DNA of 32,000 bases from NCBI GenBank assembly GCA_965243025.1, contig CBDETY010000003.1, positions 2,851,506 to 2,883,505 of the forward strand. Direction: 5' to 3'. Below, piece after piece: positions 396 through 30,872 of the stretch. A program made the position numbers and the translations under genes. Origin of the DNA: Candidatus Latescibacterota bacterium (GTDB taxonomy: Bacteria; Latescibacterota; UBA2968; UBA8231). Below the pieces are notes generated by a model. That model was not told the origin of the DNA. It made no database searches and worked only from the letters and a program-made list of their open reading frames with translations. The stretch's first letter is position 1. Each line of letters begins with the position of its first letter.

Positions 396-658
396 GCCGC
401 GGCCCCGAGCTTTGCCATTACGAAGTCGACGATAGCGTCGCAGGTCTCGAACAGCTCGATGCGCAGCTCCTCGTCGTCGATCTCGAAGCCGAACTCCTCC
501 TCCAGGCCGGCGATCAGCTCGAGCGAGGCGACCGACGAGGCGCCGCCGTCCCCGAACAGGGGCTCGCCGTCCGGGATTTCCTCCGGATCGATGTCGAGCC
601 CGAGGGTGGCGGCGATCGTCCGCTTAACCCGCTTTCTCGTCTCTTCCCGTTCCGGCAT
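374..658 (-). CDS. Acyl/peptidyl carrier protein (phosphopantetheine-binding, 94 aa)
   Basis: ATG at 658 with GGAG 6 nt upstream. The acidic 4-helix-type sequence [28 protein letters not shown] aligns with E. coli ACP [26 protein letters not shown], and a Ser sits at the attachment position. The start lies 35 nt upstream of the preceding gene's stop. Confidence 0.8.
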
Positions 659-2651: not shown

Positions 2652-2754
2652 GGATCGGACGCTCCTTCGGGCGGGTGGAACGAGGCCGGCCGACATGCGG
2701 ATGCGGCCGCTTCGCCTTCCCTGTAGACGTGCCAGCGGCTGGAAGTGCTAGTGC

Positions 2755-8392: not shown

Positions 8393-8837
8393 CTGGAGGT
8401 GAAGCTGATCGGACGCGGCGTAGGGTTCGCGCGAAATTTCCAGGGAAGTAAGAGGCAAGCCGTCCCGGGTGTCCCATGCTTTCCAATCACAAACCTCATC
8501 CAAATGAAAGGATGAAAAAATGAAAGATCTTCTCATGCTCTCTGGCCCCCTGGGCTACCACCGGGGAGCGTATCTTGAGCGCAATCGAGCAGGCGGGTGA
8601 GCTTCTCACGAGCCGGACCGGTTTCGTGGGGAGTTCATCATGAACGAGAGCGGCTCGTATTGCCAATGCTACTGACTTCGGGGAGTCCCGATTAGCGTCA
8701 AAGTCGACAGCATGGTCGTAACTGACCTCGGCCATTCTCCGATCATGCAGTACTTCTGGAGTGTGGCCGAGGTTCTTTTTCATTCCTTCTTGTCCCGCTG
8801 CTTCAACACAGGGTTACAGATCAAAGGTGGAGTTCAA

Positions 8838-9746
8838 ATGCAATTCCTTTCGTTCCGAAACGCTTTTTTTATCCTGCTCCCGACGATTGCTCTCGATGCC
8901 CAGTGGTCGGACCGCGTCTATCCGATCAGGGAGCTGACCGACGAGATGCGGGCGCACATCGACATCAGGGACGGTTCGGTTGACGACTGGTCGGAGGTAC
9001 TCGGCGAACCTGCCTTGACGGCACTGGATTTCGCCACTCACCCATCCTATCCGGAGTACGACCCGTCGTCCTTCGACTTTCGCGTCTGGCTTGCCTGGCA
9101 CGATGCAGGCAACCACCTGTTCGTGGCCGCCGAGATCGTGGACGATATCTACGTAGGAATGTGGCCGGATAATCCTCCTGATTGGGCTCCCGCCGATCGT
9201 CCTCCATTTTGGCAGCCTGCCGAAGGAACCGTTCAATTGTTGGTCGACGGCGACAGGAGTGGTGGGACGGTAGTCGAAACCGGAATGGAACAGGCGCAAG
9301 CGTATTGGGCGGTTGCCGAAAACCATGAAAACGGCAGCAACGTCTTTCTGAGTTTGGTGGGTCTCGATTATCCCTGGGTGCAACAGGTACCGTACGCCGA
9401 TGGCAGCGGGAGCGTACTGGACAGTCAGCCCGTCTTCTACGCGGTCGAGTTTTACGTCACCCCGTTTGACAGGTTGATTCCGGACTCCCCGGAGAACAGC
9501 CTGGTATCCGACCTTTACGCCGGCAAAACGATAGGTTTTTCCATGGGGATTTCGGACTCTGACACGGACCCGTTAGAGGATGACCGTTATCACGCCTTGT
9601 CCGGACCTGACGACTCATGGGGAGAGGGAATTTTAGTGTCTGACCTGTGGGCGCACGGGATCCTTCTGGGTGCCGACGGCGGTACGGAGGGCACCGCGGC
9701 CGAATGGGTCACCTGGGGCCGCATCAAGGCCAGCCTGTCGGAGTAG
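8838..9746 (+). CDS. Secreted protein with a CBM9-like / DOMON-like carbohydrate-binding fold (tentative)
   Basis: GGTGGAG lies 5 nt before ATG 8838. Signal-peptide-like N-terminus MQFLSFRNAFFILLPTIALDA. FDFRVWLAWHDAGNHLFVAAEIVDDIYV and GKTIGFSMGISDSDTD resemble CBM9-type domains. The track's start at 8712 is an unlikely upstream extension. Confidence 0.6.
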   Translation: MQFLSFRNAFFILLPTIALDAQWSDRVYPIRELTDEMRAHIDIRDGSVDDWSEVLGEPALTALDFATHPSYPEYDPSSFDFRVWLAWHDAGNHLFVAAEIVDDIYVGMWPDNPPDWAPADRPPFWQPAEGTVQLLVDGDRSGGTVVETGMEQAQAYWAVAENHENGSNVFLSLVGLDYPWVQQVPYADGSGSVLDSQPVFYAVEFYVTPFDRLIPDSPENSLVSDLYAGKTIGFSMGISDSDTDPLEDDRYHALSGPDDSWGEGILVSDLWAHGILLGADGGTEGTAAEWVTWGRIKASLSE

Positions 9747-10239
9747 AGTTCCGGCCTCAACTCACCGCGGGATCTCTGAATCCACACCTCGCCGGTCAGC
9801 CTCAACGGACCCGGAACCTTCGTCCGCCACCTCGACCGCGAAGGCTCTTTCTGCACCCGCAAAAGCTCGTAGCAGGCGATCGGCCGTCGCGGCCACCCGG
9901 CCACCGGGGTGCCCTGCCTGGTTGCGCGCGCACCGGCCCCTGAGCGACGGTCCGCTTCGGCGGTAACCAACCCAGCGTCGATAAACTATCTTTGGTTCTC
10001 CCCCAAGCTTGCGGTGGACTCACAGTCCGAGACGGTCCCTGGGGCGGTCGGACCCCGGAATGCCGGGGAAATCGACGCCCCTTCCATTCCCGCCGGAGTT
10101 CGAGGCGGTGTGCCACAGGGAGGATTCCTGTCATGCGAGCCCCGGAAATCCGAATTGGCATTGACTTCCCGCTGACAGCGGTTGGCTGGAGGCCAGGCTG
10201 TTGATGAGCCGCTGCATCCCTTCACCGAGCTGATTGGAA

Positions 10240-11805
10240 ATGCGGGTCCTTATCAGACCTGGAGGAAGGCTTTATCCGGCATTCATTGCCTTTCTCGTCT
10301 CCGCCTGCTCTCTCGCACCGGGCCGGAACCCTCCGGTTCTCGATTCAATTGAAAAACTCCCCGGCGAGTTTGCGGGAAGTGAAATCGACGGTTCCCACCA
10401 ACCTGGTTCCCACCAACCTCTTGAGTGGTGGAAGGCTTTCGCCGACCCGGTCCTCGACCGGATAATCGAGGAGGTGCTCGCCTCGAACTTCGACCTCGCC
10501 GGAGCGGTCGCCCGGGTCGACCAGGCCAGGGCGCGGGAACGGATAGCGAGGGCGCCGGTGTTTCCGCTGCTCCAGCCTTCGGTCGGCGTCACCGACTTCG
10601 ACACACCGGCCAATGCGGGTATCGGCGCGCAACTGGACGAGGTTGGCCTGGGCCCGGACGCCCTGAGCGCATCCGGAATCGACATCCCCGACAGGCTCGG
10701 CCTGACCACCTGGCACATCGGCACCGAATTCGCCTACGAGCTCGATTTCTGGGGCCGCAACCGCAACGACGGGCGCGCCGCCGGAGCCGAGCGGCTGGCC
10801 TCCGAGTCCGACTACCTCGCTGCCCGCATGGGTGTGCTCGCCGAAACCGTGCGCACCTACCTGGAGATCGTCAACCTGCGCAGCCAGCGGAGGCTGGCAG
10901 GCGAAATCGTGGAAATCCTGCAGCACCGCGAGTCGCTGGCCGGGTCCCGTTACGGCCGCGGGCTGACCGATCTGACCCCCCTCCGCACGGCGCGGCGGAA
11001 CCTGCGCAACGCGCAGGCCGAGCTGCCGCAGATCGAAGCTGTGCTGGCGGATGCGGAGGGGCGGCTCCGGGTGCTCCTGGGAGGTTTCCGCGCGGAACTT
11101 GCAGACCTGATGCCGGAATCCATGAAGCCTTCCCCAACCCTCGAACCGGTTCCCGCGGGGATTCCGGCCGATCTCCTTGTGCAGCGGCCCGACGTCAGCG
11201 CCGCCAGGCAGCGGGTCGAAGCGGCGCGCTACTCGGTCGGCGCCCGCCGCGCCGAGCTGCTGCCGAGGCTGTCCCTGTCCGGCTCCATCGGGCTGCAGAG
11301 CACGGAGTCGGGTGAGTTGTTCAACCCCGACCAATGGTTCCGCAATCTCAGCCTGAACCTGCTCGGCCCCGTGTTTCAGGGGGCGCGGCTGCGCGGCAAT
11401 GTCGCCCTCGCGGAGGCCCGGCTGAACGAAGCCGCCGCGGCTTACGGGCGTTCGGTGGTGACCGCGGTAAGCGAGGTCGAAGCCGCCCTTGCGGGTCTGG
11501 AAGCGAGCCGCCGGCGCCACTCGCTGCTCGCATCCCTGGCGGAAGAGGCCCGGGCCGAATCGGCCTTGCAGGAGCAGCGGTACCTCTCCGGCGTGGGGGG
11601 CTACGAGGCTTTCCTGACCGCGGCCCACACCCTCCTAGGCGCACAGTCCGCACTGACGGCCGCGGAGCGCGACCTGGGTTATGCCCGTCTTGCCCTGCAC
11701 CGCGCGCTCGGAGGTTCGTGGACCGCTGACGAAGGGGAAACCGTCCGCCAGAGCGAAGCAGCCCCGGCCGCCCCGCCCCGTTCTCTTCCGACCTCCACGG
11801 AGTAA
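10240..11805 (+). CDS. RND efflux outer-membrane factor lipoprotein (NodT/OprM family)
   Basis: Lipobox FLVSAC, then the typical WWKAFADPVLDRIIEEVLASNFDLAGAVARVDQARA and duplicated OEP-type helical repeats. The ATG at 10240 is preferred over the TTG at 10234. Confidence 0.9.
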   Translation: MRVLIRPGGRLYPAFIAFLVSACSLAPGRNPPVLDSIEKLPGEFAGSEIDGSHQPGSHQPLEWWKAFADPVLDRIIEEVLASNFDLAGAVARVDQARARERIARAPVFPLLQPSVGVTDFDTPANAGIGAQLDEVGLGPDALSASGIDIPDRLGLTTWHIGTEFAYELDFWGRNRNDGRAAGAERLASESDYLAARMGVLAETVRTYLEIVNLRSQRRLAGEIVEILQHRESLAGSRYGRGLTDLTPLRTARRNLRNAQAELPQIEAVLADAEGRLRVLLGGFRAELADLMPESMKPSPTLEPVPAGIPADLLVQRPDVSAARQRVEAARYSVGARRAELLPRLSLSGSIGLQSTESGELFNPDQWFRNLSLNLLGPVFQGARLRGNVALAEARLNEAAAAYGRSVVTAVSEVEAALAGLEASRRRHSLLASLAEEARAESALQEQRYLSGVGGYEAFLTAAHTLLGAQSALTAAERDLGYARLALHRALGGSWTADEGETVRQSEAAPAAPPRSLPTSTE

Positions 11806-11811
11806 ACCCCC

Positions 11812-13023
11812 ATGTCCCGCATACGCAGCTTGATCGTTGCCGCCGCCATAATCGCGGTCTCCGTCGGCCTGGCGGCCTTTCTCGTTTCGCTGGCGCCGGA
11901 GCCGGCCCGCACCGAGCCGCCGCCGCCGGTCCCGTTCGCGCAGACCGGGCTGGTCAAGGCCGGGACCGGTCCCATACCGGTATTCGGAGCCGGTACGGTG
12001 AGGCCGAGCGCGGAGATCGCAATCACTCCGCAAGTCGGCGGCAAGGTCGTCTGGGTGCATCCGGGATTCCGCAGCGGGGGACGGGTCGGGAAGGGCCAGG
12101 CGATCTTCCGCATCGAGGAAGCGGAATACCAGTACCGGGTGCGGGAGGCAAAGGCCAATCTCGCCGCCCGGCGGGTGGCCCTGCTTCAGGAAGAGGAACA
12201 GGCCGCCATCGCCCGCGGCCAGTACGAGCTTTACTCCGGCAGCCGGGGAGATACGGCATCGGCCGCGGCAAATCCCCTGACTCTGAGAGAACCCCAGCTC
12301 GAAGCCGCCCGCGCCGCCATGGACCGCGACGAAGCCCGCCTTGCCGAGGCGAACCTCGCCCTGTCGCGAACCCGGGTGACGGCCCCCTTCGACGGCTTCG
12401 TGCGCGAGGAGTCCGTTGACGCGGGGCAGGTCGTGAGCCCCGGCCAGCCGGTCGGGCGGCTTTTCTCCGCCGATGCCGTGGAAGTGGTCGTGTCCCTGTC
12501 CGACGCCGACGCCGCCCTGATCCCGGGGCTGTGGCAACTCGAGGCAGGCGACGGGAACCGAAAGGTGGCCGCCCGGGTGGTCGCCCGCTACGGCGGGGAG
12601 AGCTTTTCCTGGGAAGGTTTCGTCGATCGGGGCGAGGCGTCCCTCGACGAACAGACGCGCACCATCGACGTGATCGTGCGTGTGCCGGACCCGTTTTCCG
12701 CGAGCGTTCCGGCTGGCGGGGCAGGCGTCCCCGGGGGCAACCCGCCGTTGCTGGTGGGTGAGTTCGTCGAGGTGGAAATCCAGGGCCTCGAGCTCGATGG
12801 CTACTTCGAGGTGCCGCGGGCTGCCCTGCGCGCCGGCGACGAGGTCTGGATGGTCGACGAGGGCGGAGTCGTGAGCATCGTTCCGGTACGGGTGCTGCAG
12901 CGGGCGGACGACCGGGTATTCGCGACCGGCAGCCTCGGAAGCGGCGGGGCGGTGATCACCGGCGGGATCCAGTTCGCCACCCAAGGCATGCTCGTCAGGA
13001 CCGGGGCGGACCCCTCGCCATGA
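11812..13023 (+). CDS. RND efflux periplasmic adaptor (membrane fusion protein, HlyD/AcrA family)
   Basis: N-terminal TM anchor, lipoyl-like motif ITPQVGGKVVWVHPGFRSGGRVGKGQAIFRIE and a coiled-coil hairpin. It starts 6 nt after the OMF stop, and its TGA overlaps the RND start (ATGA at 13020-13023). Confidence 0.9.
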   Translation: MSRIRSLIVAAAIIAVSVGLAAFLVSLAPEPARTEPPPPVPFAQTGLVKAGTGPIPVFGAGTVRPSAEIAITPQVGGKVVWVHPGFRSGGRVGKGQAIFRIEEAEYQYRVREAKANLAARRVALLQEEEQAAIARGQYELYSGSRGDTASAAANPLTLREPQLEAARAAMDRDEARLAEANLALSRTRVTAPFDGFVREESVDAGQVVSPGQPVGRLFSADAVEVVVSLSDADAALIPGLWQLEAGDGNRKVAARVVARYGGESFSWEGFVDRGEASLDEQTRTIDVIVRVPDPFSASVPAGGAGVPGGNPPLLVGEFVEVEIQGLELDGYFEVPRAALRAGDEVWMVDEGGVVSIVPVRVLQRADDRVFATGSLGSGGAVITGGIQFATQGMLVRTGADPSP

Positions 13024-16000
13024 GTCCCAACGACGATTTCCACGGGGAACGGCCCGGACCGCTCGCCTACATGGCGGGCAACGGCGTCGCCGCCAACCTG
13101 CTGATGTGGGCAATCATCGCCGCGGGACTGGTGTCGCTCACCGCCATCGAGCGCGAAGCCTGGCCGACCCAGTCCTTCTACCATATCGAAGTCTCCATGG
13201 CCTATCCCGGCGCCACGCCGGAGGAGATCGAGGAGTCGATCGTCGTAAAGATCGAGGACCAGGTCAGCGGGCTGGATGACGTGAAGGCGGTCAAGTCCGT
13301 AGCGGCCCCGGGCATGGCCTCGGTGCGGGTCCAGATGGATTACGACACCGACATGGCCCGGGCCCTGGACGATATCGAGTCTGCGGTCAGTCGCATACCG
13401 TCCTTCCCGGCCGGCGCCGAACGTCCGCGGTTCCGGGAGATGGACAACCGCATGAGCATTATGCGGCTCATCGTCCACGGCGACGTCTCCGAGCGCTCGC
13501 TGAAGGAACTGGCGTACCAGATCGAGGACGACCTCACCACGCTCCCCTCCGTCTCCCAGGTGGAAGTCAGCGGGGTCCGGAGCTACGAGATCTCCATCGA
13601 GGTTCCCCTTCACCGCCTGCGGGCCCTCGGACTCACGCTCACCGACATCGCCGGCACCATTCGCCGCAGTTCCCTGGACCTGTCGGCCGGCAGCATCGAT
13701 ACCCGGGAATCCCAGGTCCGGGTGCGCACCCTCGGCCAGAACTACGACCAGCAGGACTTCGAGGAGATCGTCCTTCTCAGCGGCCGTGACGGCACGGTCG
13801 TGCGCCTCGGCGATATCGCCGAGGTCCGCGACGGTTTCCAGGAAGCCGACCTGATCGTGCGGCACCAGAACCATCCCGCGGTCTTCGTCGAGGTCTACCG
13901 GGCCGGCGGCGAGCACGTGATGGACGTGGCCACCACCGTCCGCGAGCACCTGGCGAACGAGGTGATCCCGGCCCTGCCGGACGGCGTCGGCATCACCATG
14001 TGGAACGACGAATCCCAGGTCTATGAGGAACGCGCCGATCTTCTCCTCAAGAACGGGATCCTGGGCATGTTGCTGGTGCTGATCGCGCTCAGCCTGTTTC
14101 TCGAAATCCGGCTCGCGCTCTGGGTCGCCGTGGGCCTCGCCGTTTCGGGTATCGGCGCCCTCGCCGTCATGATGGCATTCGACGTGGCGATCAATACCAT
14201 CAGCCTGTTCTCCTTCGTCCTCGCCATAGGGATCGTCGTCGACGACGCCATCGTCGTGGCCGAGCACATTCGATACGAACGCCAGCGGGGAACACCCGGG
14301 GTCACGGCCGCGATCCGCGGGGTACGGCGGATAAAGGTGCCGTTGACGTTCGCAGTCCTCACGTCGGTGGTGGCCTTCGTCCCGCTGCTGTTCATCCCCG
14401 GCGGCATCGGCGACGTGTGGCGGGCCCTGCCGATCATCATGATCGCCATGCTGCTGGTTTCCCTGGTCGAATCGCTGCTGGTGCTGCCCAACCACCTGTC
14501 CCACCTGCACGGCCCGGAGTGGGTGCCGGCCAATGCCTTCGACCGGTTCTTCGCGGGGCTGCAGGGGCGCGTGGACGCGCTGCTGAACAGGTTCGTGCAA
14601 GGGCCCCTGGACCGGGCCCTGAGGTTCGCCACGGCCCAGCCCGGAGTGACGATGGCGGGGGCCGTGGGAATGCTCGTGCTGAGCATCTCCCTTTTGCCCG
14701 CCGGGATCGTTCCTACCACGCTGGCCGCTGACGTGGAGGGGGATATCGCGACGGTCGTCCTGGAGATGCCCGACGGGGCGACCGCTCCGAGGACGTACGA
14801 GGTGGCGCAGGAACTGGAGGCCGCGGGCAACCGGGTCATCGAACGACTCTCGCGCGGCCGGCCCGGGGACGCGTCGCCGCTGCTGACCGGCGTGACGGTG
14901 ACCGTCGGGCTGGGCTCGAGACTCGAGGGCGGGCTCAATCCGGAGCCCACCCTCAACCCGCAAGCCAATATCGCCACCATCGAGTTCAAGCTCCTGGGCG
15001 CCCAACAGAGAGAGATCTCCACCGGAGAGGTCGTGCAGGCATGGCGGGAGGAGGTGGGTGTGCTGCCGTACGTGCGCGGCATCACCTTCAGCAGCGAGGT
15101 CTTCGACCTGGGCAACCCTGTCGAGGCGGTGCTTTCGCATCCGCATCCGGAACTTCTCGCCGAGATCGCGGACTCGGTGGTCGAAGGCCTCCGAAGTGTG
15201 GATGGCGTCTACGACATACGTTCGGACCACACCCCGGGAATCCCGGAAGTTCAGCTCGAGCTGCTTCCGGAAGCGCGCACACTCGGTCTCACGCTCGAAG
15301 AGCTGGCCGGGCAAACGCGCGCCGCCTTCTTCGGCGCCGAGGCGGTCCGGGTGCAGCGGGGCCGCGAAGAGGTCCGGGTCTACGTGCGCCTGCCCGAAGA
15401 CGAGCGGAATTCGATCACCGACGTCGAAAGCTACCTGGTCCGCACGCCGGGCGGGGCCGAGGTCCCGGTCATGAGTGTGGCCTCCCTGAACCCGGGGGTG
15501 TCGCCGCCGGCCGTTCGACGGAAGGACGGCCAGCGCGTCGTCACGGTCACTGCGGACGTCGATGCTTCCGTGATTTCAGGCGACGAAGCCAACGACATCC
15601 TGGCCAATTCCATCCTCGCGGACCTGACCGCCCTGCACCCGGACCTGACATTCAGTTTCGGCGGGGAACAGCAACAGCAGCTCGAATCCCTGGACGCGCT
15701 GTACCGCGGGTTCGCGGTCGCCCTGATCATGATCTTCGCCCTCCTCGCCATCCCCCTCCGATCCTATACCAAGCCGTTCATAATCATGGCCGTGATCCCC
15801 TTCGGATTCATCGGAGTGATCCTGGGTCACTGGATCCTCGGAGTAGCCCTGAGCGCCGTATCCTTCATGGGGATCTTCGGCCTGAGCGGGGTGGTGGTGA
15901 ACGATTCCCTGGTCATGCTCGATTTCATCGATCAGAAACTCGGGGAAGGCGTCCCGGCAAGGACTGCGGTCGTGGAGGGAGCCAAGGGGCGCTTTCGTCC

Positions 16001-16214
16001 GATCATGCTCACTTCCCTGACTACGTTCCTCGGCTTCACGCCCCTCATCCTGGAACGCGCCATCCAGGCCCAGTTCCTGATCCCCTTTGCCGCCTCGCTC
16101 GGTTGCGGCATCCTCTTCACCACGGCCATACTCATGATGGTCGTTCCCGCGCTCTACACCATCCATCTGCGTCTGATTGCTTCGGGGCGCCGTTCCGGCA
16201 CCGGCAGCGCGTAG
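13020..16214 (+). CDS. RND efflux permease (AcrB/AcrD/AcrF superfamily, 1064 aa)
   Basis: Length and architecture are typical of 12-TM RND pumps. ACR_tran-like motifs include AIGIVVDDAIVVAEHI and GLSGVVVNDSLVMLDFI. Confidence 0.92.
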   Translation: MSPNDDFHGERPGPLAYMAGNGVAANLLMWAIIAAGLVSLTAIEREAWPTQSFYHIEVSMAYPGATPEEIEESIVVKIEDQVSGLDDVKAVKSVAAPGMASVRVQMDYDTDMARALDDIESAVSRIPSFPAGAERPRFREMDNRMSIMRLIVHGDVSERSLKELAYQIEDDLTTLPSVSQVEVSGVRSYEISIEVPLHRLRALGLTLTDIAGTIRRSSLDLSAGSIDTRESQVRVRTLGQNYDQQDFEEIVLLSGRDGTVVRLGDIAEVRDGFQEADLIVRHQNHPAVFVEVYRAGGEHVMDVATTVREHLANEVIPALPDGVGITMWNDESQVYEERADLLLKNGILGMLLVLIALSLFLEIRLALWVAVGLAVSGIGALAVMMAFDVAINTISLFSFVLAIGIVVDDAIVVAEHIRYERQRGTPGVTAAIRGVRRIKVPLTFAVLTSVVAFVPLLFIPGGIGDVWRALPIIMIAMLLVSLVESLLVLPNHLSHLHGPEWVPANAFDRFFAGLQGRVDALLNRFVQGPLDRALRFATAQPGVTMAGAVGMLVLSISLLPAGIVPTTLAADVEGDIATVVLEMPDGATAPRTYEVAQELEAAGNRVIERLSRGRPGDASPLLTGVTVTVGLGSRLEGGLNPEPTLNPQANIATIEFKLLGAQQREISTGEVVQAWREEVGVLPYVRGITFSSEVFDLGNPVEAVLSHPHPELLAEIADSVVEGLRSVDGVYDIRSDHTPGIPEVQLELLPEARTLGLTLEELAGQTRAAFFGAEAVRVQRGREEVRVYVRLPEDERNSITDVESYLVRTPGGAEVPVMSVASLNPGVSPPAVRRKDGQRVVTVTADVDASVISGDEANDILANSILADLTALHPDLTFSFGGEQQQQLESLDALYRGFAVALIMIFALLAIPLRSYTKPFIIMAVIPFGFIGVILGHWILGVALSAVSFMGIFGLSGVVVNDSLVMLDFIDQKLGEGVPARTAVVEGAKGRFRPIMLTSLTTFLGFTPLILERAIQAQFLIPFAASLGCGILFTTAILMMVVPALYTIHLRLIASGRRSGTGSA

Positions 16215-16245
16215 TGCAATTCACGATGCAGGGAGGCTGAGGCTG

Positions 16246-18279
16246 ATGGCTGATACTACCGAGGGCTTGACGACCCCACCCCTGACTCTGACCCAGGAAC
16301 TCATCCTGATGCTCCTCAACGAGGAGACCGGCTACTTTCACCAGGTACCCGGCTGGCACCTGAACTGCGCCGTGGTCGGTGCCGTGCTCGCGGAGCTTTC
16401 ACTCCAATCTCGCATCGACACGGACATGGAATCCCTCTTCCTCGTGGACGCGTCGGAAACGGGCAACCCGGCCCTGGACCCCATCCTCGAGGAAATCGCG
16501 AACGCACCGAGGCAACACAACGCCCAGTACTGGATCGAACGGCTCGCTCCCCGTGCCGAGTCGATCATCGATTCGGTCCTGGACCGCCTGGTTGACCTGA
16601 AGATCCTGGAATACCACGACGGCGAATTCTGGACACTGGCTCCTGCCGTCCGGCATGGGGAACTGTCCGGCACGTCGGAGGAGGGCACTGAGGGCCAGTT
16701 CATAAGGACCCGTATCAGCAGGGTCATCTTCACCGACGAGATACCCGATCCGAGAGATGTCATCATTATCTGCCTCGTCAATACCTGCGACGTATTCCGT
16801 TTCATATTCCAGCTCGACGACGAGGCGGAGGAGCGCATCGAGTTCATCTGCAGGATGGACCTGATCGGCCGCTCCCTGGCGGCTGCGGTCTCTCAGAACC
16901 TCGCCGGCCCGGCCCTTCAACGCCCTGCCCTTGCCAGGAAGATCCCGACGGTTTCGCTCACCAAGCTGCTGCGGAACCCCCATGTTCGAGACGGCAACCT
17001 GAACGCGCTCTTCGGGAGCCTTGCGGAGGAGTACGGTCCGGTGTTCCAGATCCGCCCTCCCTTCTCGAAGCCCATGATCTTCCTGGCCGGACTCGAGGCA
17101 AACCGCTGGGTGCACAAGCGGGGGCGCATGTACCTGAGAGCCAGGGACTACTTCAGCGACTTCGAGAAGGTCTACGGCGCCTCCGGCGTCCTGCCCGCCC
17201 TGGACGGCGCCGATCACTTCCGGCTTCGCAAGTCCCTGTCGCCGGCCTATTCCGCCGGGAGGCTGGGAGGGCAGCTGGACCAGCTCTACAACCAGGGGCG
17301 CAAGTACATGGCGAGCTTGACGGTAGGGGACTCCTACCGCGCCACGTCCATGTGCCGGGAGATGGTGAACGCGCAGCTCTCGCCGCTGTTCATCGGCGTC
17401 GAAACCCAGGACCTCATGGACGACCTGATGGCCTACAAAATGCGGGCCCTCAGCGTGCACATCGCCAAGCTCCTGCCAAGGTTCACGCTGAACACCCCGG
17501 GCATGAGACGCCGGGCGAAAGCCCTGGACATACTGATGCAGCGGGTCGAGAGCGTCCATACCCCCGCCCAACGGGCGGACAGCCCGCGGGACCTGGTGGA
17601 CGATTACCTCAGCTTGCACGCGAGCGACCCCCAGTTTCTCCCGGAGTCCAACCTGCGGTTCGCCTTTTCCGCGGCCCTGATCGCCAGCGTGTACCTCGGG
17701 GATACGTTCAGCCTCGTAGTCTACGCCATGGCGTCGCAGCCCGACCTCTACGCCCGGATCCAGGCCGAAGCAGATGCCCTGTTCGCCAAGGGCGACCCCG
17801 AAAGAGAGGACTTCACCCCCGCCAACATCGACGTGACGCACCGCTTCCTGATGGAGTGCCTGCGCATGTACCCCATCGTCTCCATGTCCATTCGGAACGT
17901 GATGAATACCTGCGTGGTCGAGAATCACGAGCTGCCCATGGGGGAACGGATCCACATCGCCATGACCGCCACGCATTACATGAGCGACGTCTTTCCCGAC
18001 CCCTGCAAGTTCGACATCGACCGCTACCTGCCGCCGCGCCATGAGCATCGCAACCCCGGGTACGCCCCGTACGGGCTGGGCACGCACAAGTGTCTCGGCA
18101 CCCGCTGGATGGAGCTGCACCTGGCGGCCAACCTGCTGATGCTGGCGCACTACTTCACTATTGAGGTGTCCCCGGAGAAGTACAAGACCAAGCTCCGTTT
18201 CAGTCCCTTTCCGTCGCTGAAACCGAGCAAGAAGCTGAAGTTCCGCATCTCCGGGCAGAGGCGCGAGCTGCCCGCCTGA
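16246..18279 (+). CDS. Fusion protein: N-terminal GPP34/GOLPH3-like domain plus C-terminal cytochrome P450
   Basis: GGGAGG at 16231-16236 lies 9 nt before ATG 16246. The N-terminal ~220 aa (LTLTQELILMLLNEETGYF...AVVGAVLAELSLQSRI...WIERLAPRAESIIDSVLDRLVDLKIL) follow the GPP34 pattern. The P450 part has ExxR (ECLR), a PERF-like FDIDRYL and the heme loop YAPYGLGTHKCLG. Confidence 0.85.
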   Translation: MADTTEGLTTPPLTLTQELILMLLNEETGYFHQVPGWHLNCAVVGAVLAELSLQSRIDTDMESLFLVDASETGNPALDPILEEIANAPRQHNAQYWIERLAPRAESIIDSVLDRLVDLKILEYHDGEFWTLAPAVRHGELSGTSEEGTEGQFIRTRISRVIFTDEIPDPRDVIIICLVNTCDVFRFIFQLDDEAEERIEFICRMDLIGRSLAAAVSQNLAGPALQRPALARKIPTVSLTKLLRNPHVRDGNLNALFGSLAEEYGPVFQIRPPFSKPMIFLAGLEANRWVHKRGRMYLRARDYFSDFEKVYGASGVLPALDGADHFRLRKSLSPAYSAGRLGGQLDQLYNQGRKYMASLTVGDSYRATSMCREMVNAQLSPLFIGVETQDLMDDLMAYKMRALSVHIAKLLPRFTLNTPGMRRRAKALDILMQRVESVHTPAQRADSPRDLVDDYLSLHASDPQFLPESNLRFAFSAALIASVYLGDTFSLVVYAMASQPDLYARIQAEADALFAKGDPEREDFTPANIDVTHRFLMECLRMYPIVSMSIRNVMNTCVVENHELPMGERIHIAMTATHYMSDVFPDPCKFDIDRYLPPRHEHRNPGYAPYGLGTHKCLGTRWMELHLAANLLMLAHYFTIEVSPEKYKTKLRFSPFPSLKPSKKLKFRISGQRRELPA

Positions 18280-18290
18280 GGCGCTGCGAA

Positions 18291-19322
18291 GTGGGGCTGG
18301 GAAAGCTTTCGAGAGAGCTGAGAGACGCGTACCGGGGATCGCCCGTGGCGCGGCGGGTCCGGCACTTCGAGGGCTGGCTCGACCGGGCGGCGGCGGAGCC
18401 AGGTGGCGCGGGGTACGACCACACTGAAACAGCGAAAGACTATTACGACCTCTGCAGCGGGTTCATGGTGTGGGGCTGGGGCGAATCCCTGCACTTCGCC
18501 CCCCTCACGCCTCATGAGAGTCTGGAGGAGTCCAAGGTCCGGCACCAGCGGGCGATGATCTCCGAGTTGGAGCTGCAACAGGGTATGACGGTGGTCGACG
18601 TCGGTTGTGGGGTCGGCGGCCCCATGCGCCGCGTCGTCCGTGAGGCCGGGGTCAGGGTCGTGGGCATCAACATCAATGAGATCCAGTTGGAAATGGCGAA
18701 GAGGTTGAACGCCGAGGCGGGGCTCGATCACATGGTCGATTTCGAGACCTGCAGCTTCATGGACATGAGCGCCATCGAGGACGACACCTTCGACCGGGGG
18801 TATGCCATAGAGTCAACCTGCCATGCGCCGGACAAGCAACGCGCCTTCGAGGAGGTTTTCCGCGTGCTGAAACCCGGTGCCCTGTTCTGGGGGCAGGAAA
18901 TGTGTCTGACGGACAAGTTCGATCCGCAGGACGACCGGCACCGGGCCATCGAGCAGGATCTCATGCGCGGCATTGCGCTGAAGGACATCGCCACCTTCGG
19001 GGAAGTGGATCACGCGCTCCAAGCCGCGGGATTCCAAGTCATGGAAGGGATGGACCGGGACGTCCAGGAGGGACCCTCCACACCTTGGTACAAGCCCATG
19101 GAGAGTCGCCACGGGGCGTTGGGCAACGCCTTGCGCAGGCTTCCGTGGGGCCGCAAGGCCTTCCTCGCAGGATCGAAGCTGGCGGAAGTGCTGCGGCTCT
19201 TTCCGAAAGGCTCCGCCGAAGTGGTCCGATTCCTCGATCGAACCGCGCAGGCTTATGTCGCGGGGGGCAAGGCGGGAATCTTCACGCCGCTGTACTGTTT
19301 TCTGGCTCGCAAGCCTCTTTAA
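18291..19322 (+). CDS. Sterol C-24 methyltransferase (ERG6/SMT1-like, SAM-dependent)
   Basis: GTG start 11 nt after the P450 stop, with GAGG 9 nt upstream. All SMT signature blocks are present: YYDLCSGFMVWGWGESLHFAP, VDVGCGVGGP, YAIESTCHAP, TPWYKPMES and the C-terminal LFPKGSAEV...VAGGKAGIFTPLYCFLARKP. From memory, yeast ERG6 has YYNVVTDFYEYGWGSSFHF, LDVGCGVGGP, YAIEATCHAP, IPWYYPL and GLAPEGSKEV...VAGGKSKLFTPMMLFVARKP. Confidence 0.9.
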   Translation: MGLGKLSRELRDAYRGSPVARRVRHFEGWLDRAAAEPGGAGYDHTETAKDYYDLCSGFMVWGWGESLHFAPLTPHESLEESKVRHQRAMISELELQQGMTVVDVGCGVGGPMRRVVREAGVRVVGININEIQLEMAKRLNAEAGLDHMVDFETCSFMDMSAIEDDTFDRGYAIESTCHAPDKQRAFEEVFRVLKPGALFWGQEMCLTDKFDPQDDRHRAIEQDLMRGIALKDIATFGEVDHALQAAGFQVMEGMDRDVQEGPSTPWYKPMESRHGALGNALRRLPWGRKAFLAGSKLAEVLRLFPKGSAEVVRFLDRTAQAYVAGGKAGIFTPLYCFLARKPL

Positions 19323-19433
19323 GCCTGGATGACAGGCCGGTCCTCGCCTTGGAATGGAGGGGCATCGGCGATCGTTCAGCGGGGCCGCCCACCAGGACGG
19401 AAACGGCCAGGTACGGCAGGTGTCGGGCGAGAG

Positions 19434-20519
19434 TTACCCGACCTCGCCGGACTCTGCCGTTTCACCCCCGGCGCCGTCCGGCTCAAGTTGCGGATAGAAC
19501 TGCCGGCAGTACCGGCGGTACTGCCCTATGGGGCCGTCGGCCGCACACAGCCTGGGGACAGGCCGGTACTGCTTCCGCTCCCAGATCACCACGTCCTGCA
19601 GGACATCCTGTTGCTGTTGTGACAGCAGAATGCGGTTCATCAGCCTGCTGCGAAGCTTCATCGGAAGAAACCCCAGGCCCGAGATGAACCGCCGCGGCCT
19701 GCGGATGTCCCGCATCTGGCTGACCAGTGCGAGATCGATGAGAGTGCCGTCAACGGGCGTTGCCAGCACCCACAATCGAGTATTCATACCGATGGTTTTC
19801 TCGTGGATTTCGACGAAGGAGTACCCCAGTCCATGGACGTGGGTGACGGCCGAGGTTTCGTGCACGAGGTCCTTTACCCCCAGGATCCTGCGGACCCGTT
19901 TGAAATCGAAGCAGCTCTTCAGGTAGGGGCCGTCGACCGTGACCGTACCGACCGGATTCACGTTGTCGTAGCCGTGCACGTAGCGCAGGTGTCCCAGGTC
20001 CACGGAGTTCTCGGCCGTCTCCTGGGGATGGCCGCGGAACCGGAGGGTCCTGAATCCCGGCTTCCCCCACTCCGGGCCGCCGGGGGGGTCGTCCGGAAGG
20101 TGCCAGTGCGGAGGACGGCCGCCGCTGCCGAACCAGGCGAAGACCATGCCGAGGATCTCCCTGGTCTCGTAAACCTTCAGTTTCGCGGCTTTGGGAGCCG
20201 GGGCGTTCGGAGTGGCGACGCACTGGCCGGTCGTGTCGAACTCAAACCCGTGAAACGGACAGACGAGGCGGCCGTCGCACACCTGGCCGCCGACCTCCGG
20301 CCCCAGGTACGAACCCAGGTGGGGACATACCGCGTCGGCCACGCAGACTCGGCCTGCCTCGTCGCACCAGGCGACGATTTCCTCCCCCAGCCAGGTTTTC
20401 TCGATCAGTTTCTCACGCAGAATGGACTCGCGGGTTTCTACGAAATACCACCCCTCGGGGAACGCCGGCAACTCGTCGATTCGATTCAAGGCAGGTCGTT
20501 GGGAGTTGCTGACTGGCAT
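19434..20519 (-). CDS. Rieske [2Fe-2S] non-heme iron oxygenase (Neverland / KshA / SdmA-like, sterol-type)
   Basis: Rieske motif CPHLGSYLG...CPFHGFEF and mononuclear iron motif ENSVDLGHLRYVH. I placed the start at ATG 20519 (MPVSN..., GGA-rich stretch ~9 nt upstream); the longest ORF starts at a TTG at 20567. Confidence 0.8.
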   Translation of the reverse strand: MPVSNSQRPALNRIDELPAFPEGWYFVETRESILREKLIEKTWLGEEIVAWCDEAGRVCVADAVCPHLGSYLGPEVGGQVCDGRLVCPFHGFEFDTTGQCVATPNAPAPKAAKLKVYETREILGMVFAWFGSGGRPPHWHLPDDPPGGPEWGKPGFRTLRFRGHPQETAENSVDLGHLRYVHGYDNVNPVGTVTVDGPYLKSCFDFKRVRRILGVKDLVHETSAVTHVHGLGYSFVEIHEKTIGMNTRLWVLATPVDGTLIDLALVSQMRDIRRPRRFISGLGFLPMKLRSRLMNRILLSQQQQDVLQDVVIWERKQYRPVPRLCAADGPIGQYRRYCRQFYPQLEPDGAGGETAESGEVG

Positions 20520-20613
20520 GTCCGGAGATCCTGTCATCAGCACCGAGATAATATCAGAGTTATGCAAGTTCCCTGGTATGAAATGCCCAGGGGGGAACCC
20601 GAGGGTGATTCAG

Positions 20614-21918: not shown

Positions 21919-24582
21919 CTAGTAAACCACCGCGACGGTGCGGATGACATCGCTCTGGTCGAGGCCGGCGCCCTTGTCGTCGGCCTCGACGTGGAAGCGG
22001 AGAACATACATCCCGGGAGGGACACATCTGCCGGCCTCGTCCTCACCGTCCCATTTCAGCTCGTATTCACCTGCGCCCACCTCCCCGCGTTTTCGCAGGG
22101 TGCGCACGGGCCGACCGCTCAGGTCGTGGACGGACACCTCCACCGCACGGCTTGCCCCCACGAGAACGACCGCGAAACGGAGGACAAGCTCGTCGTTGAC
22201 GCCGTCGCTGTTCGGGGTGAAGACCGGAGGTAGAATATCGAAGGCCGTCATGAGCTGTCGGCGTTGCTGAACCCCTACCACTACCAGGCTGTTGCTGTCG
22301 ACGCCGCGGGCGGCATCGCCCCCGTCCACCTGCTGCCAGACCGTCTCTCCGTCGCCGGCGAAGCGGGCAAACGCCTGCACCTGCCCGCCGACGGAAAACA
22401 GACGGCCCGTGAAGTCGAGGCGAAGCACCTCGATGCCCTCTTCCGGTTCGATGAGGGGAAAGGCGACCAGCAGACTGTCCTCGGAGGTGTCGAGCTGTAT
22501 GGCGCCCTCAATGGCGAAGGGGGAGGACAGACCTCCTTCCGCCAGCAGGTCCTGCTCCGCTCCGGCGAGTATGCGGCTGAAGACATCCAGGCTCATGCCG
22601 TCAGGCGCGGTGAGCAGCAGTCCGTCGAAGCCCGGGTTCCCGCGGCCGAAGTCCGGCCGCACGTACAGGGAAAAGGGCCATTCCACCGCCAGCGACTCGA
22701 CCCTCCCCGGGGTCACCTCCCCCAGAAAACGCTGCGCCAGCGGGTCGGAGTACTTCAGTCGCACGCTGCGCAGGGCGGCGGCGGCCTCGGGGCTGTCCGA
22801 GATCAGGGTGGCGCGCATCTGCACGAAGTTGCGCGGCGACGGCGAGGTGATGCGGCTGCCGGACACCCGGTACGGCTCGCTCCAGGCACTGGCGTCGCTG
22901 CCCATGACCTCCTCGATGACGATGTCCCCTCTGAGAGTATTGGGGGGGAGTTTGACCTTCGGGTTGGGCTCCTTGAGCTTGTCGTACCTCTCCGCGGTCA
23001 CCTCCTCGCCGAGGCCGTTGTAATAATGGCTTACCTCCGACTTCGTGCTGCTGGTGCGGGTCTGCAGGAAGACGCCGGTCCCCGGAGGGGTGTCGGCGTC
23101 CCACTCGATGGAGGTCAGCGTGCGCGTCCCCCCCGGGTCGATGAGGGGTGACTCGAGGCTCACCCGCGGCTGAAACCCATCGCCGTACATCTGCAGCTCG
23201 GTGATCGGAAAATTGACAATGTTCACTCCTCTTTCATACACGATCCTGAAGTATCGAGCCTGCAGGGGCGCCCCGAAGCTGTGGCGCTCGGCTTCCATCT
23301 GGGTTCTGTGCACCTCGTAAAACCGGCCCCCTTCCCCCCGGCGGCCTCGAAGCTTGGCCACCGGGACCTGCTCGATGCGCTTGCCCGTGACCCAGTTGGG
23401 GCTGCCGTCGACCTGCCGGGAACCGTCGGAGAAATCGAGCTGGAAATTCCCGAACGTGTAGTTGTGACCGGCACCCCGCAGGTTCATGAGGATCCTCAGG
23501 CTGCTGATCCAGAAGGACGACCCGAGATCCACGACCATTTCAGGCACGAGCGCCTTCTGGACCTGGAGGGGAAAAGCGGTCAGCACGTTGCCGTCGAACA
23601 TGTCGCCAGGAGCAGCTTCGCTCGGGGGCTGGGTCGCAACGCCGCCCCCCCGTTCGAGGAGTCGGCGCGCCAGGTCTTCCCCCTCCTCCCAGACCTCGAG
23701 CTCTGCCAGACGAGGCCGTTCGCGGCGATAGTGGCGGATCGGTCCCCGCCGCTCCTCGGGCACGAGGAGGTAGTTTTCTTCCGGCACGGCAAGCAGCCGT
23801 CCATCGCTCAGGCGTTTGGTGAATTCCACCGCACCCCTGACTTCCTCAGGAAGCTCCCGGTACGTTTCGGCGTCGACCTCCACACCGCGGCCAAGGCGCG
23901 ATCCGCGCACGATCACCTGGACGTAGCGGGCGACCATGGTGCGGGCATTGTCCGGCACCTCGGAAAAGTCGATCTCGAACAGGCGCCGGGTCGTGTTCGG
24001 CGTGAACAAGCGCAGGACGGGCAGGTATTCGAGGGATTCCCCGGCGAGGGTGGAGACCGGTTTCTGCCCGTCCGAGGTCAGCACGTCGAAAAGCAGAAAG
24101 GGATCGCCCAGATCCTCGTCGACAAAGCGCAGCACGATCCGGTTGAGGACGACGACGCGGCCCAGATCGAGGGTGAACCACCACCGGGACGGGATGTCGG
24201 CTCCCTCGGGAAGGGGGCCAGGCTCCCAGAAAGTTGCCGCATCCCCGTCCAGGACTCCGGGTACCCCTTCACGATTCGAGCCCGCGGCGACGGCGTCGAG
24301 AAGGTCGATCTCCTCCGGCGCCTTGCCGGCCAGGTGTTCCGGGGGCCGCTCGCGGAGGAAATCGACAATGCGGTCCCTGGCGTTGGTATCCATGGTCCAG
24401 CGCCTCGGTTGCACGCCGGAAGGAAGAAGCTCCACCGTGCCCACGGGAAACAGCCAGTGCTCCCAGTGCTCCGGAGTGTCGGCCACGATCTGACGCCCGG
24501 TGCGGTCCAGCCGGTACGCGCCGGCCTGGCCCCAAAGGGAGGTGCTCGTGAACACGAGCACGGCAAGGGCGACGGCGAACAC
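21919..24582 (-). CDS. Large secreted protein (~887 aa) with discoidin-like domain(s) and a C-terminal FTPNxDGVND / FlgD-Ig-like domain
   Basis: Proposed GTG start at 24582, 16 nt after the upstream stop, gives a hydrophobic N-terminus FAVALAVLVFTSTSLWGQA. LDGDAATFWEP resembles a discoidin (F5/8 type C) domain. The C-terminus FTPNSDGVNDELVLRF...VHDLSGRPVRTL...GEYELKWDGEDEAGRCVPPGMYVLRF resembles FlgD-Ig / T9SS-type sorting domains. Confidence 0.7.
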   Translation of the reverse strand: MFAVALAVLVFTSTSLWGQAGAYRLDRTGRQIVADTPEHWEHWLFPVGTVELLPSGVQPRRWTMDTNARDRIVDFLRERPPEHLAGKAPEEIDLLDAVAAGSNREGVPGVLDGDAATFWEPGPLPEGADIPSRWWFTLDLGRVVVLNRIVLRFVDEDLGDPFLLFDVLTSDGQKPVSTLAGESLEYLPVLRLFTPNTTRRLFEIDFSEVPDNARTMVARYVQVIVRGSRLGRGVEVDAETYRELPEEVRGAVEFTKRLSDGRLLAVPEENYLLVPEERRGPIRHYRRERPRLAELEVWEEGEDLARRLLERGGGVATQPPSEAAPGDMFDGNVLTAFPLQVQKALVPEMVVDLGSSFWISSLRILMNLRGAGHNYTFGNFQLDFSDGSRQVDGSPNWVTGKRIEQVPVAKLRGRRGEGGRFYEVHRTQMEAERHSFGAPLQARYFRIVYERGVNIVNFPITELQMYGDGFQPRVSLESPLIDPGGTRTLTSIEWDADTPPGTGVFLQTRTSSTKSEVSHYYNGLGEEVTAERYDKLKEPNPKVKLPPNTLRGDIVIEEVMGSDASAWSEPYRVSGSRITSPSPRNFVQMRATLISDSPEAAAALRSVRLKYSDPLAQRFLGEVTPGRVESLAVEWPFSLYVRPDFGRGNPGFDGLLLTAPDGMSLDVFSRILAGAEQDLLAEGGLSSPFAIEGAIQLDTSEDSLLVAFPLIEPEEGIEVLRLDFTGRLFSVGGQVQAFARFAGDGETVWQQVDGGDAARGVDSNSLVVVGVQQRRQLMTAFDILPPVFTPNSDGVNDELVLRFAVVLVGASRAVEVSVHDLSGRPVRTLRKRGEVGAGEYELKWDGEDEAGRCVPPGMYVLRFHVEADDKGAGLDQSDVIRTVAVVY

Positions 24583-24598
24583 GGGAACCGCACCCCTT

Positions 24599-30555: not shown

Positions 30556-30569
30556 TATGGACCTTCCTG

Positions 30570-30685
30570 CTCGCGGTCTCCGCGAGAATGGGTGCGCTGC
30601 CTCAGGCTCCCGGCAACGTACTTTCTTCAGCCTCAAACGCCAACCGGCAATGGAGGAACCCTGCCCCTGGATTTCCCGCGCGGGA
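30570..30685. promoter_or_regulatory. Divergent control region containing a 7-bp hairpin abutting the hyuB-like SD and a perfect 12-bp palindrome
   Basis: ctcgcgg-tct-ccgcgag at 30570-30586 sits directly 5' (on the mRNA) of the SD at 30562-30568. tcccgcgcggga at 30674-30685 is a perfect palindrome between the divergent genes. Confidence 0.35.
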
Positions 30686-30872
30686 GACAGCACAGGATCC
30701 GCAATCGCTCGCCGGCGGCCGGCGGGTACGACGGAAGGCTCATGAACGACAAGACTGTTCTGAAGAAAGGAAGCGTGACCTTTCCCGAGGACCGCATCCG
30801 GATCAGCTGCCGGGCCCCCCGGCCGCTGTGTTTCCGGTTGGCAACGCCGGGTTTCCGGCAGGAGATGAAACC

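Follow-up and report, generated by a model that had tools for sequence, protein, structure and literature searches.

In two described bacterial systems, BstA-BstB-BstC of Methylococcus capsulatus and HpnN, the gene for an RND-superfamily inner-membrane transporter lies beside sterol- or hopanoid-modifying genes, and these systems have been proposed to carry lipid to the outer membrane (PMC10942540). A comparable neighbourhood is found in a genome of Candidatus Latescibacterota (assembly GCA_965243025.1), in the stretch of 32,000 nucleotides from position 2,851,506 to 2,883,505 of contig CBDETY010000003.1 that was analysed here and is called the window. Five genes follow one another on its + strand between positions 10240 and 19322, encoding an outer-membrane factor (OMF), a periplasmic adaptor (membrane fusion protein, MFP), an RND permease, a fusion of a GPP34 domain with a cytochrome P450 (GPP34::P450, from here on the fusion) and a protein of the sterol C-24 methyltransferase (SMT) family. 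BstABC combines its transporter with a periplasmic binding protein and a TPR-like lipoprotein, whereas the window encodes an ACR_tran permease, an adaptor and a NodT channel; unlike BstA and HpnN, the window permease carries no MMPL domain, and the module to which it belongs is mobile across phyla and sponge-associated. The tripartite pumps AcrAB-TolC, MexAB-OprM and CmeABC share with the window the three components, the gene order and the Asp-Asp pair of transmembrane helix 4 (TM4), and are its best solved relatives. From HAE1 pumps the window RND differs in scoring below the cut-offs, in having Asn-Asp at the Lys940 position and in falling into a separate clade, and also in its setting, which is an apparent operon with biosynthetic enzymes rather than the control of a local repressor.

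The enzymes of the locus have relatives in two published sets of symbiont genes. GPP34_L of Ferreira et al. 2025 is of the same family, architecture and length as the fusion, with a similar distribution over symbiont metagenome-assembled genomes (MAGs) of multiple phyla; a secreted effector binding phosphatidylinositol 4-phosphate (PI4P) was proposed for it, whereas here the fusion appears in a sterol pathway with a dedicated transporter (PMC11706023). The main text of that paper makes no mention of sterol, methyltransferase, RND or efflux, and names just a P450 among the neighbours of the short-form GPP34 (PMC11706023). The symbiont sterol clusters of Brown et al. 2023 contain the same SMT family, and their “Nitrospira MAG” cluster has the gene order of two loci compared below, L045 and L056; those clusters are complete de novo pathways, whereas the window holds tailoring genes and a pump without a cyclase (PMC10070321). 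No P450, RND, Rieske protein or transporter is mentioned in their main text, nor do the gene tables list one next to the SMTs or between them (PMC10070321). A literature search for work linking the fusion to symbiont SMTs, or either of them to a transporter, found no relevant paper. The fusion and the symbiont SMTs have been published separately, and their link to each other and to a transporter appears to be new; two separate findings, a fusion guessed to serve phagosome evasion and SMTs that complicate sponge biomarkers, would thereby become one pathway with a transporter.

We consider it probable that the five genes form a single operon, and that it represents one form of a sterol-tailoring module that moves horizontally and includes an RND-superfamily lipid transporter matched to the cell envelope. 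A sterol in the inner membrane, supplied by the host in most lineages and synthesised by the bacterium where the gene of an oxidosqualene cyclase adjoins, would be alkylated at C-24 by the cytoplasmic SMT and oxidised by the P450 and by a Rieske enzyme encoded next to the five genes, with the GPP34 domain perhaps keeping the P450 at the membrane. The RND permease would then take up the product, which would leave via adaptor and OMF channel for the outer membrane or the cell exterior. The type of transporter would fit the envelope, being an AcrB-shaped permease in outer-membrane bacteria and an MMPL protein with a sterol-sensing domain in Chloroflexota. Bile salts and steroid hormones are among the substrates that AcrB, CmeB and MtrD export, which makes a sterol-like cargo mechanistically plausible. 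The sterol and hopanoid transporters so far known from bacteria, BstA and HpnN, are of MMPL type, and the window pump would be the first AcrB-shaped tripartite system for sterol trafficking. An initial annotation, made from the letters of the window, had already read the pump as a mover of modified sterol or lipid; this is supported by the conserved linkage, the sterol-pathway adjacency and the exchange of transporters in Chloroflexota described below, while the cargo itself and the direction of transport are what we infer.

The five genes lie as the initial annotation had placed them, in one direction and with intergenic distances of exactly 6 nt, -4 nt (an ATGA overlap), 31 nt and 11 nt (Table 1). 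Long spurious open reading frames (ORFs) are common in the window because it is GC-rich (66%); coding frames were chosen over overlapping antisense ORFs by frame analysis of GC content at third codon positions (GC3), which gives one coding frame per region from 10240 to 19322. The absence of any internal promoter-sized gap, also claimed at the outset, holds up. Neither short spacer contains a sigma-70-like promoter or an intrinsic-terminator-like site, and between 16214 and 16246, where such a signal would have spoken against a common transcript, there is no hairpin either; spacer folding is no better than in shuffled controls (z = +1.44, -0.55 and -0.64). All six terminator-like matches are intragenic, for a chance expectation of 7.0 +/- 2.9. 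The 493-nt region upstream of the first gene yielded no match to the sigma-70 consensus. The large ORFs of the window include no protein of the TetR family, the type of repressor said to be missing nearby, ORFs below about 200 aa outside the cluster not having been systematically screened. The layout is consistent with a single transcript.

Table 1. Coordinates of the features of the locus, numbered from the first letter of the window
Feature	Position	Strand	Basis or remark
Upstream intergenic region, 493 nt	9747..10239	+	Sole promoter-sized gap ahead of the operon
OMF, NodT-family lipoprotein	10240..11805	+	Pfam OEP 147 bits; TIGR01845 280 vs cut-off 210
Periplasmic adaptor (MFP), N-terminal membrane anchor	11812..13023	+	HlyD_3, HlyD_D23; TIGR01730 (RND_mfp) 156 vs cut-off 95
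RND permease, AcrB-type architecture, divergent clade	13020..16214	+	ACR_tran PF00873 527 bits, residues 23-1048 of 1064
RND-to-fusion spacer, 31 nt	16215..16245	+	Shine-Dalgarno AGGGAGG; no hairpin (z = +1.44)
GPP34::cytochrome P450 fusion (“GPP34_L” form)	16246..18279	+	Pfam GPP34 108 bits, residues 15-216; p450 119 bits
SMT family protein	18291..19322 (GTG start)	+	PF08241 64 bits; Sterol_MT_C PF08498 59 vs 21.7
Convergent spacer, SMT stop/Rieske stop, 111 nt	19323..19433	.	No canonical terminator; z = -0.64
KshA-type Rieske non-heme-iron oxygenase	19434..20567	-	PF00355 56 bits; KshA_C PF19298 79 bits, positions 2-207 of 207

Relatives of the fusion were found by genome scan in 458 species-representative genomes, and the loci of the best 80 of these, each with a fusion 71% or more identical along its full length, were compared by tblastn with the window proteins and by clustering of all ORFs; ORF calls in the related loci are approximate, and taxon labels are the submitters' own. 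The labels among these 80 comprise Latescibacterota, Gemmatimonadota (including Ca. Palauibacter), Opitutales, Nitrospirales, Binatia, Acidobacteriota, Rhodothermales and Chloroflexota/SAR202, with the closest relatives in Latescibacterota (up to 94% identity). In protein databases the fusion has more than 120 clusters at 74-100% identity, the two-domain architecture being common to all. Isolate names are often in the sponge-MAG style of Ferreira et al. (e.g. APA_bin, SB06xx_bin), and the window organism is probably a sponge symbiont of Latescibacterota/Gemmatimonadota type. Since the fusion is present at high identity across many phyla and the non-module genes that flank it are not common to the different lineages, the module has moved horizontally. 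Its conserved core consists of the fusion, the KshA-type Rieske protein and the SMT, often with an amine-oxidase-type FAD oxidoreductase.

Linkage of the transporter to this core is conserved. The full-length loci number 65, of which 43 are from diderm bacteria outside Nitrospirales, 20 from Chloroflexota and two from Nitrospirales. All 43 of the first group (17 Gemmatimonadota, 14 Latescibacterota, three Opitutales, one each of Acidobacteriota, Binatia and Rhodothermales, and six unlabelled) have an AcrB-type RND orthologue, 70-94% identical to that of the window, linked to the fusion, SMT and Rieske genes, and none has an MMPL transporter. The synteny on which the initial annotation had made its reading depend is therefore present, rearranged layouts included (L046, L048, L054, L061 and L068). 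In 32 of 42 co-directional loci the RND gene lies upstream of the fusion by no more than 60 nt, mostly 27-31 nt and most commonly 30-31 nt, and a Shine-Dalgarno sequence is conserved 8-10 nt before the ATG of the fusion in every lineage. Adaptor orthologues (58-74% identity) are present in 31 of the 43 loci and OMF orthologues (66-77% identity) in 19. Because these two are variably present, the conserved unit is RND plus fusion and the full three-part operon is lineage-specific, so that of the proposed association of a complete pump with the enzymes the RND-fusion pairing stands as conserved and the completeness does not.

The 20 Chloroflexota loci have no AcrB-type RND, and each of them has an MMPL transporter instead. 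This protein of 827 aa matches MMPL (150 bits), the Patched sterol-sensing domain (SSD) and the sterol-sensing domain model (38 vs 22.3); its matches to HAE3, HpnN, BstA and Patched are weak (HpnN 100 vs 752, BstA 31 vs 1400), and form a point of likeness between the module and the BstA and HpnN systems. An MFS transporter and an LppX/LprG-type lipoprotein adjoin the MMPL gene in eight loci. Examples of these flanking genes, from Chloroflexota loci within L050-L080, are L064:13107-15590(-), L063:16848-18344(-) and L073:18326-19129(-). The mycobacterial proteins MmpL, LprG and P55 (Rv1410c) serve in lipid export. The side-by-side arrangement of MMPL, MFS and LppX/LprAFG-type lipoprotein genes resembles them at the level of family matches, a likeness that concerns the Chloroflexota loci and not the window. 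The SMT/P450 pair without the pump, named in the initial annotation as an arrangement that would count against it, does literally occur in Chloroflexota and Nitrospirales, but since an MMPL/SSD transporter takes the pump's place in 20 of 20 Chloroflexota loci, the case for transport as part of the module is strengthened. The exchange of AcrB-type for MMPL/SSD transporters by envelope type is a natural experiment on which part of the module is indispensable.

Several related loci place the module directly beside sterol synthesis genes. The module genes of sponge-associated Nitrospira (SMT, FAD oxidoreductase and fusion) adjoin a second SMT, a fused squalene epoxidase and oxidosqualene cyclase (SE::OSC), a CYP51-like P450 and an ERG4/ERG24 reductase; L045 and L056 further carry SdmB-like (293 bits) and SdmA-like (408 bits) genes, and the A. 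aerophoba scaffold of Brown et al. probably has a similar layout. Sterol pathway, tailoring genes and pump are brought together in one block of 22 kb in an Opitutales locus (L054, 370-21905), in the order SdmB, SMT2, SE::OSC, CYP51-like, ERG4/24 and SdmA; fusion; Rieske, TPR, SMT, RND, MFP and OMF. The genes of its last part (OMF>MFP>RND>SMT>TPR>Rieske) are co-directional, with an RND-SMT distance of 11 nt.

The pairing of RND and fusion genes has some evolutionary depth. An exhaustive search of 1.8 billion representatives for relatives of the RND shows that its orthologue group stands apart, the next clusters being at 58%, 47% and 45% identity; beyond these is a very large RND family at 35-41% identity and 630-930 bits (AcrB/MexB about 200-230), and the nearest outgroups carry generic “AcrB/AcrD/AcrF family” labels only. 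A GPP34::P450 paralogue, 33% identical to that of the window, lies 30 nt upstream of the 58%-identical RND (L084:5293-10544), with an OEP gene and an MFS gene nearby on the opposite strand, which implies a second, older lineage of the RND-fusion pairing. Next to the 45%-identical outgroup lie genes for two P450s and for an FAD oxidoreductase of amine-oxidase type. Pairwise divergences of RND and fusion are correlated (Mantel r = 0.56, p = 0.0005), as are those of Rieske protein and fusion (r = 0.67), and the RND surpasses every other gene of the island in conservation, with 83% mean identity against 75% for the fusion. One locus (L031:645-4955) has a second Rieske gene and a second RND gene (49% identical to that of the window) paired directly upstream of the main RND-fusion pair, suggesting that an oxygenase-plus-RND unit was duplicated.

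NCBIfam and Pfam searches identify all three components of a tripartite pump in the window. The OMF, above the TIGR01845 cut-off and with the lipobox LVSAC including Cys23 (nt 10294-10308), is a lipidated outer-membrane factor of the NodT/TolC family, and the adaptor, whose stop codon overlaps the RND start by 4 nt, qualifies as the cognate adaptor of a tripartite system. The closest PDB structures to the permease are MexB/MdtB/AcrB-type pumps, at ~200-230 bits. The proton relay of AcrB is formed by Asp407, Asp408, Lys940 and Arg971. The window RND keeps the Asp-Asp pair in its TM4 motif GIVVDDAIV (nt 14229-14255) and the Arg in its TM11 motif RFRPIMLTS (nt 15990-16016), whereas Lys940-Asn aligns with the Asn-Asp of its TM10 motif GVVVNDSLV (nt 15888-15914), kept in 42 of 47 orthologues. 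The TM10 motif mirrors that of TM4, and the lack of the Lys940 equivalent is common to the nearer outgroups of the clade. By the curated cut-offs the permease is not a member of the HAE1 subfamily, with scores of 315-417 bits against 940-1250 (TIGR00915 315 vs 940, NF033617 417 vs 1250, NF000282 344 vs 1250); HME cut-offs are not reached either. Nor is it an HpnN/BstA-type (MMPL) permease, there being no match to MMPL (PF03176) and an HAE3 score of just 26.6 bits. The early guess of an AcrB-like permease, as opposed to one like HpnN or BstA, was thus correct, but a place within HAE1 is not, and judged by its sequence the protein belongs to a separate, uncharacterised RND clade.

The fusion consists of a GPP34 domain (~nt 16288-16893) and a P450 domain (~nt 16984-18252), the latter with ExxR, the GDT I-helix motif and the heme ligand Cys616 in YGLGTHKCLG (nt 18070-18099). 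With GPP34 at the N-terminus, P450 at the C-terminus and a length of about 675 aa, it corresponds to GPP34_L. Although CYP51 is the nearest solved P450, the match is only 69-73 bits (E about 1e-18 to 1e-19) and an identity as CYP51 was ruled out; L054 and L081-L083 encode a separate CYP51-like P450 in addition to the fusion. The conserved regions I to III of SMTs are YEYGWG-SFHF-like, LDVGCGVGGP and YAIEATCHAP. The window protein has them as WGWGESLHF, VDVGCGVGGP and YAIESTCHAP, and together with Methyltransf_11 and Sterol_MT_C domains they place it in the ERG6/SMT1 family. Its orthologues in related loci are 69-91% identical, and by gene order it was assigned to the orthologue group of one of the SMTs that Brown et al. 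2023 list in their Nitrospira cluster; they found that 8 of 10 symbiont SMTs methylate desmosterol (PMC10070321).

The Rieske gene, left out by the initial annotation, is part of the same conserved module; its orthologues, about 345-390 aa long, occur in the majority of the 80 loci, ORF clustering giving 62. Its motifs CPH...CPFHG (2Fe-2S) and ENSVDLGHLRYVH (non-heme iron) are intact, its top PDB match is KshA (E = 5e-22), and its true start probably lies downstream of the TTG at 20567. It was ruled out as SdmA by a score of 31 bits against the NF052579 cut-off of 600, the SdmA-like gene of L045 scoring 408 bits. No GPP34::Rieske fusion is present among the top 120 Rieske homologues. Nine members of a cluster of 477 aa (P0178) combine an SMT with a KshA_C fragment, and are either real SMT-Rieske fusions or read-through gene calls. 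The FAD oxidoreductase of ~460 aa that often accompanies the core is encoded in 41 of 80 loci (e.g. L074:19145-20533(-)) and not in the window; by likeness to BfaA of tuberculostearate synthesis we speculate that it could reduce a 24-methylene intermediate. A secreted TPR protein of ~260 aa lies between the SMT and Rieske genes in 13 diderm loci (e.g. L043:13267-14061(+)). This protein (cluster 8), not present in the window, was considered as BstC-like from its size and TPR nature, but PDB and NCBIfam profiles gave generic TPR matches alone.

A number of observations weigh against a sterol module with its own transporter. The window has no oxidosqualene cyclase or other de novo sterol genes, such genes (SdmA/SdmB/ERG4-24) lie within 10 kb of the module in just 3 of 65 full-length loci, and a cyclase was detected in L054 and L081-L083 alone; host sterols are therefore likely to be the substrate in most carriers. 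Several Longimicrobiales loci have the RND without an adjoining adaptor or OMF and with unrelated genes upstream of it. Nitrospirales are diderm, and their loci L045, L056 and L081-L083 have no RND within 10 kb, the two full-length ones having no transporter of any kind within that distance. The Mantel correlation reflects shared history in part, not function, and the inactive SMTs of Brown et al. are not matchable to the orthologue group of the window SMT. Some of this would suit a xenobiotic detoxification island of phase I/II/III layout, in which P450, Rieske protein and methyltransferase modify toxic metabolites of host or co-symbionts (terpenoids, steroidal saponins, alkaloids) and the RND expels them, and to which we assign a small but real probability. 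The RND is AcrB-shaped, its nearest named relatives are annotated as multidrug pumps only, the P450 falls in no characterised sterol family, most loci are without nearby sterol synthesis genes, and the module is reported only from sponge holobionts, which are chemically rich (PMC11706023). However, C-terminal domain and motifs alike mark the methyltransferase as specifically one of the sterol family, complete de novo sterol pathways directly adjoin the module in Nitrospira and Opitutales, the substitute transporter of Chloroflexota has a sterol-sensing domain, and the very high cross-phylum conservation of the RND (83% mean identity) suggests one defined substrate and not broad specificity. 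Two further alternatives are weakened in the same way, by a methyltransferase of the sterol family, by neighbours that serve biosynthesis and by the change of transporter in Chloroflexota. Uptake and catabolism of host sterol, in which the KshA-like oxygenase and the P450 would start ring and side-chain degradation as in actinobacterial cholesterol catabolism and the transporter would acquire the substrate, appears improbable: the Rieske protein has its top solved match in KshA, an enzyme of catabolism, known pathways of side-chain degradation begin with P450s and the window lacks a cyclase, but KstD, Hsa or Mce-type genes are not among the conserved neighbours, the SMT adds carbon and is biosynthetic, the module joins biosynthetic clusters in Nitrospira and L054, and to our knowledge tripartite RND pumps act solely as exporters. 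Islands do carry passenger genes, and the variable presence of adaptor and OMF genes would suit a general efflux pump that hitch-hiked in island transfer without functional connection; the linkage nevertheless survives at least five independent rearrangements and persists with a fusion diverged to 33% identity, another transporter family fills the pump's place in Chloroflexota and conservation within the island is highest for the RND, so that mere adjacency is a shade more improbable still.

The published model for the GPP34 protein (Ferreira et al. 2025), in which the secreted protein would bind PI4P of the host and stop phagosomes from maturing, with pump and SMT unrelated to it, is in our estimate very improbable for this locus. 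It is favoured by the solid GPP34 match and by the reports that the GPP34+P450 fusion is exclusive to sponge symbionts and that its long form is expressed in situ (PMC11706023). Against this, the N-terminus of the fusion has no signal peptide, GPP34 is joined to a heme P450, whose redox partners have to be cytoplasmic, and the gene sits at tight junctions, coupled by Shine-Dalgarno sequences, between those of the RND and of an S-adenosylmethionine-dependent SMT. We know of no RND pump that exports folded proteins of 75 kDa. The PI4P pocket of Vps74 consists of W88, R97, K178 and R181, and Arg97 we take to be essential for PI4P binding. In an alignment to Vps74 that is weak (E about 0.01), the fusion conserves the tryptophan as W37 but has an invariant Val43 at the Arg97 position; the positions of K178 and R181 fall outside the alignable part of the GPP34 domain. 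As far as can be read from sequence, a membrane tether or a substrate hand-off is more likely for this domain than a secreted effector.

Under the sterol-tailoring and transport model, the same pairing of transporter and enzymes in symbionts labelled as at least seven phyla suggests that sterols are re-tailored and moved out of the cell. A bolder version, tentative and on present evidence unlikely though worth stating, is that the mobile island takes up host sterols, alkylates and oxidises them, and hands them back through the RND, in symbionts labelled as at least seven phyla. Were this true, bacteria working on host sterols would account for some of the unusual sterols of sponges; these could include side-chain-alkylated precursors of the 24-isopropylcholestane-type biomarkers that are used as evidence of the earliest animals, and the GPP34 domain would be a membrane or sterol hand-off module and not a secreted effector. 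The five-gene operon is small enough for E. coli supplied with sterols, which makes candidate producers of unusual sponge sterols directly testable.

Other genes of the window are outside the module. An ORF of 344 aa and lower GC (0.58-0.61) lies directly upstream of the operon (8712-9746(+)); Pfam and NCBIfam gave no match for it, and the 80 related loci contain no homologue. A subtilase (Peptidase_S8) fused to DUF1611_N and a DUF1611 P-loop domain, an unusual architecture, is encoded at 624-2696(-). Two large secreted proteins (21919-24744(-) and 24599-26599(-)) have FlgD_ig/CHU_C (type IX secretion-like) C-terminal domains, one of them together with an F5/8 type C (discoidin) domain, and may be eukaryote-like adhesins. 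A hydantoinase A/B pair (26697-30693(-)) lies about 7 kb from the module, and hydantoinase homologues are found within 10 kb of it in L023, L035, L038, L039, L043, L064, L065, L073, L074 and L078, a recurrence that may merely be typical of sponge-symbiont metabolism.

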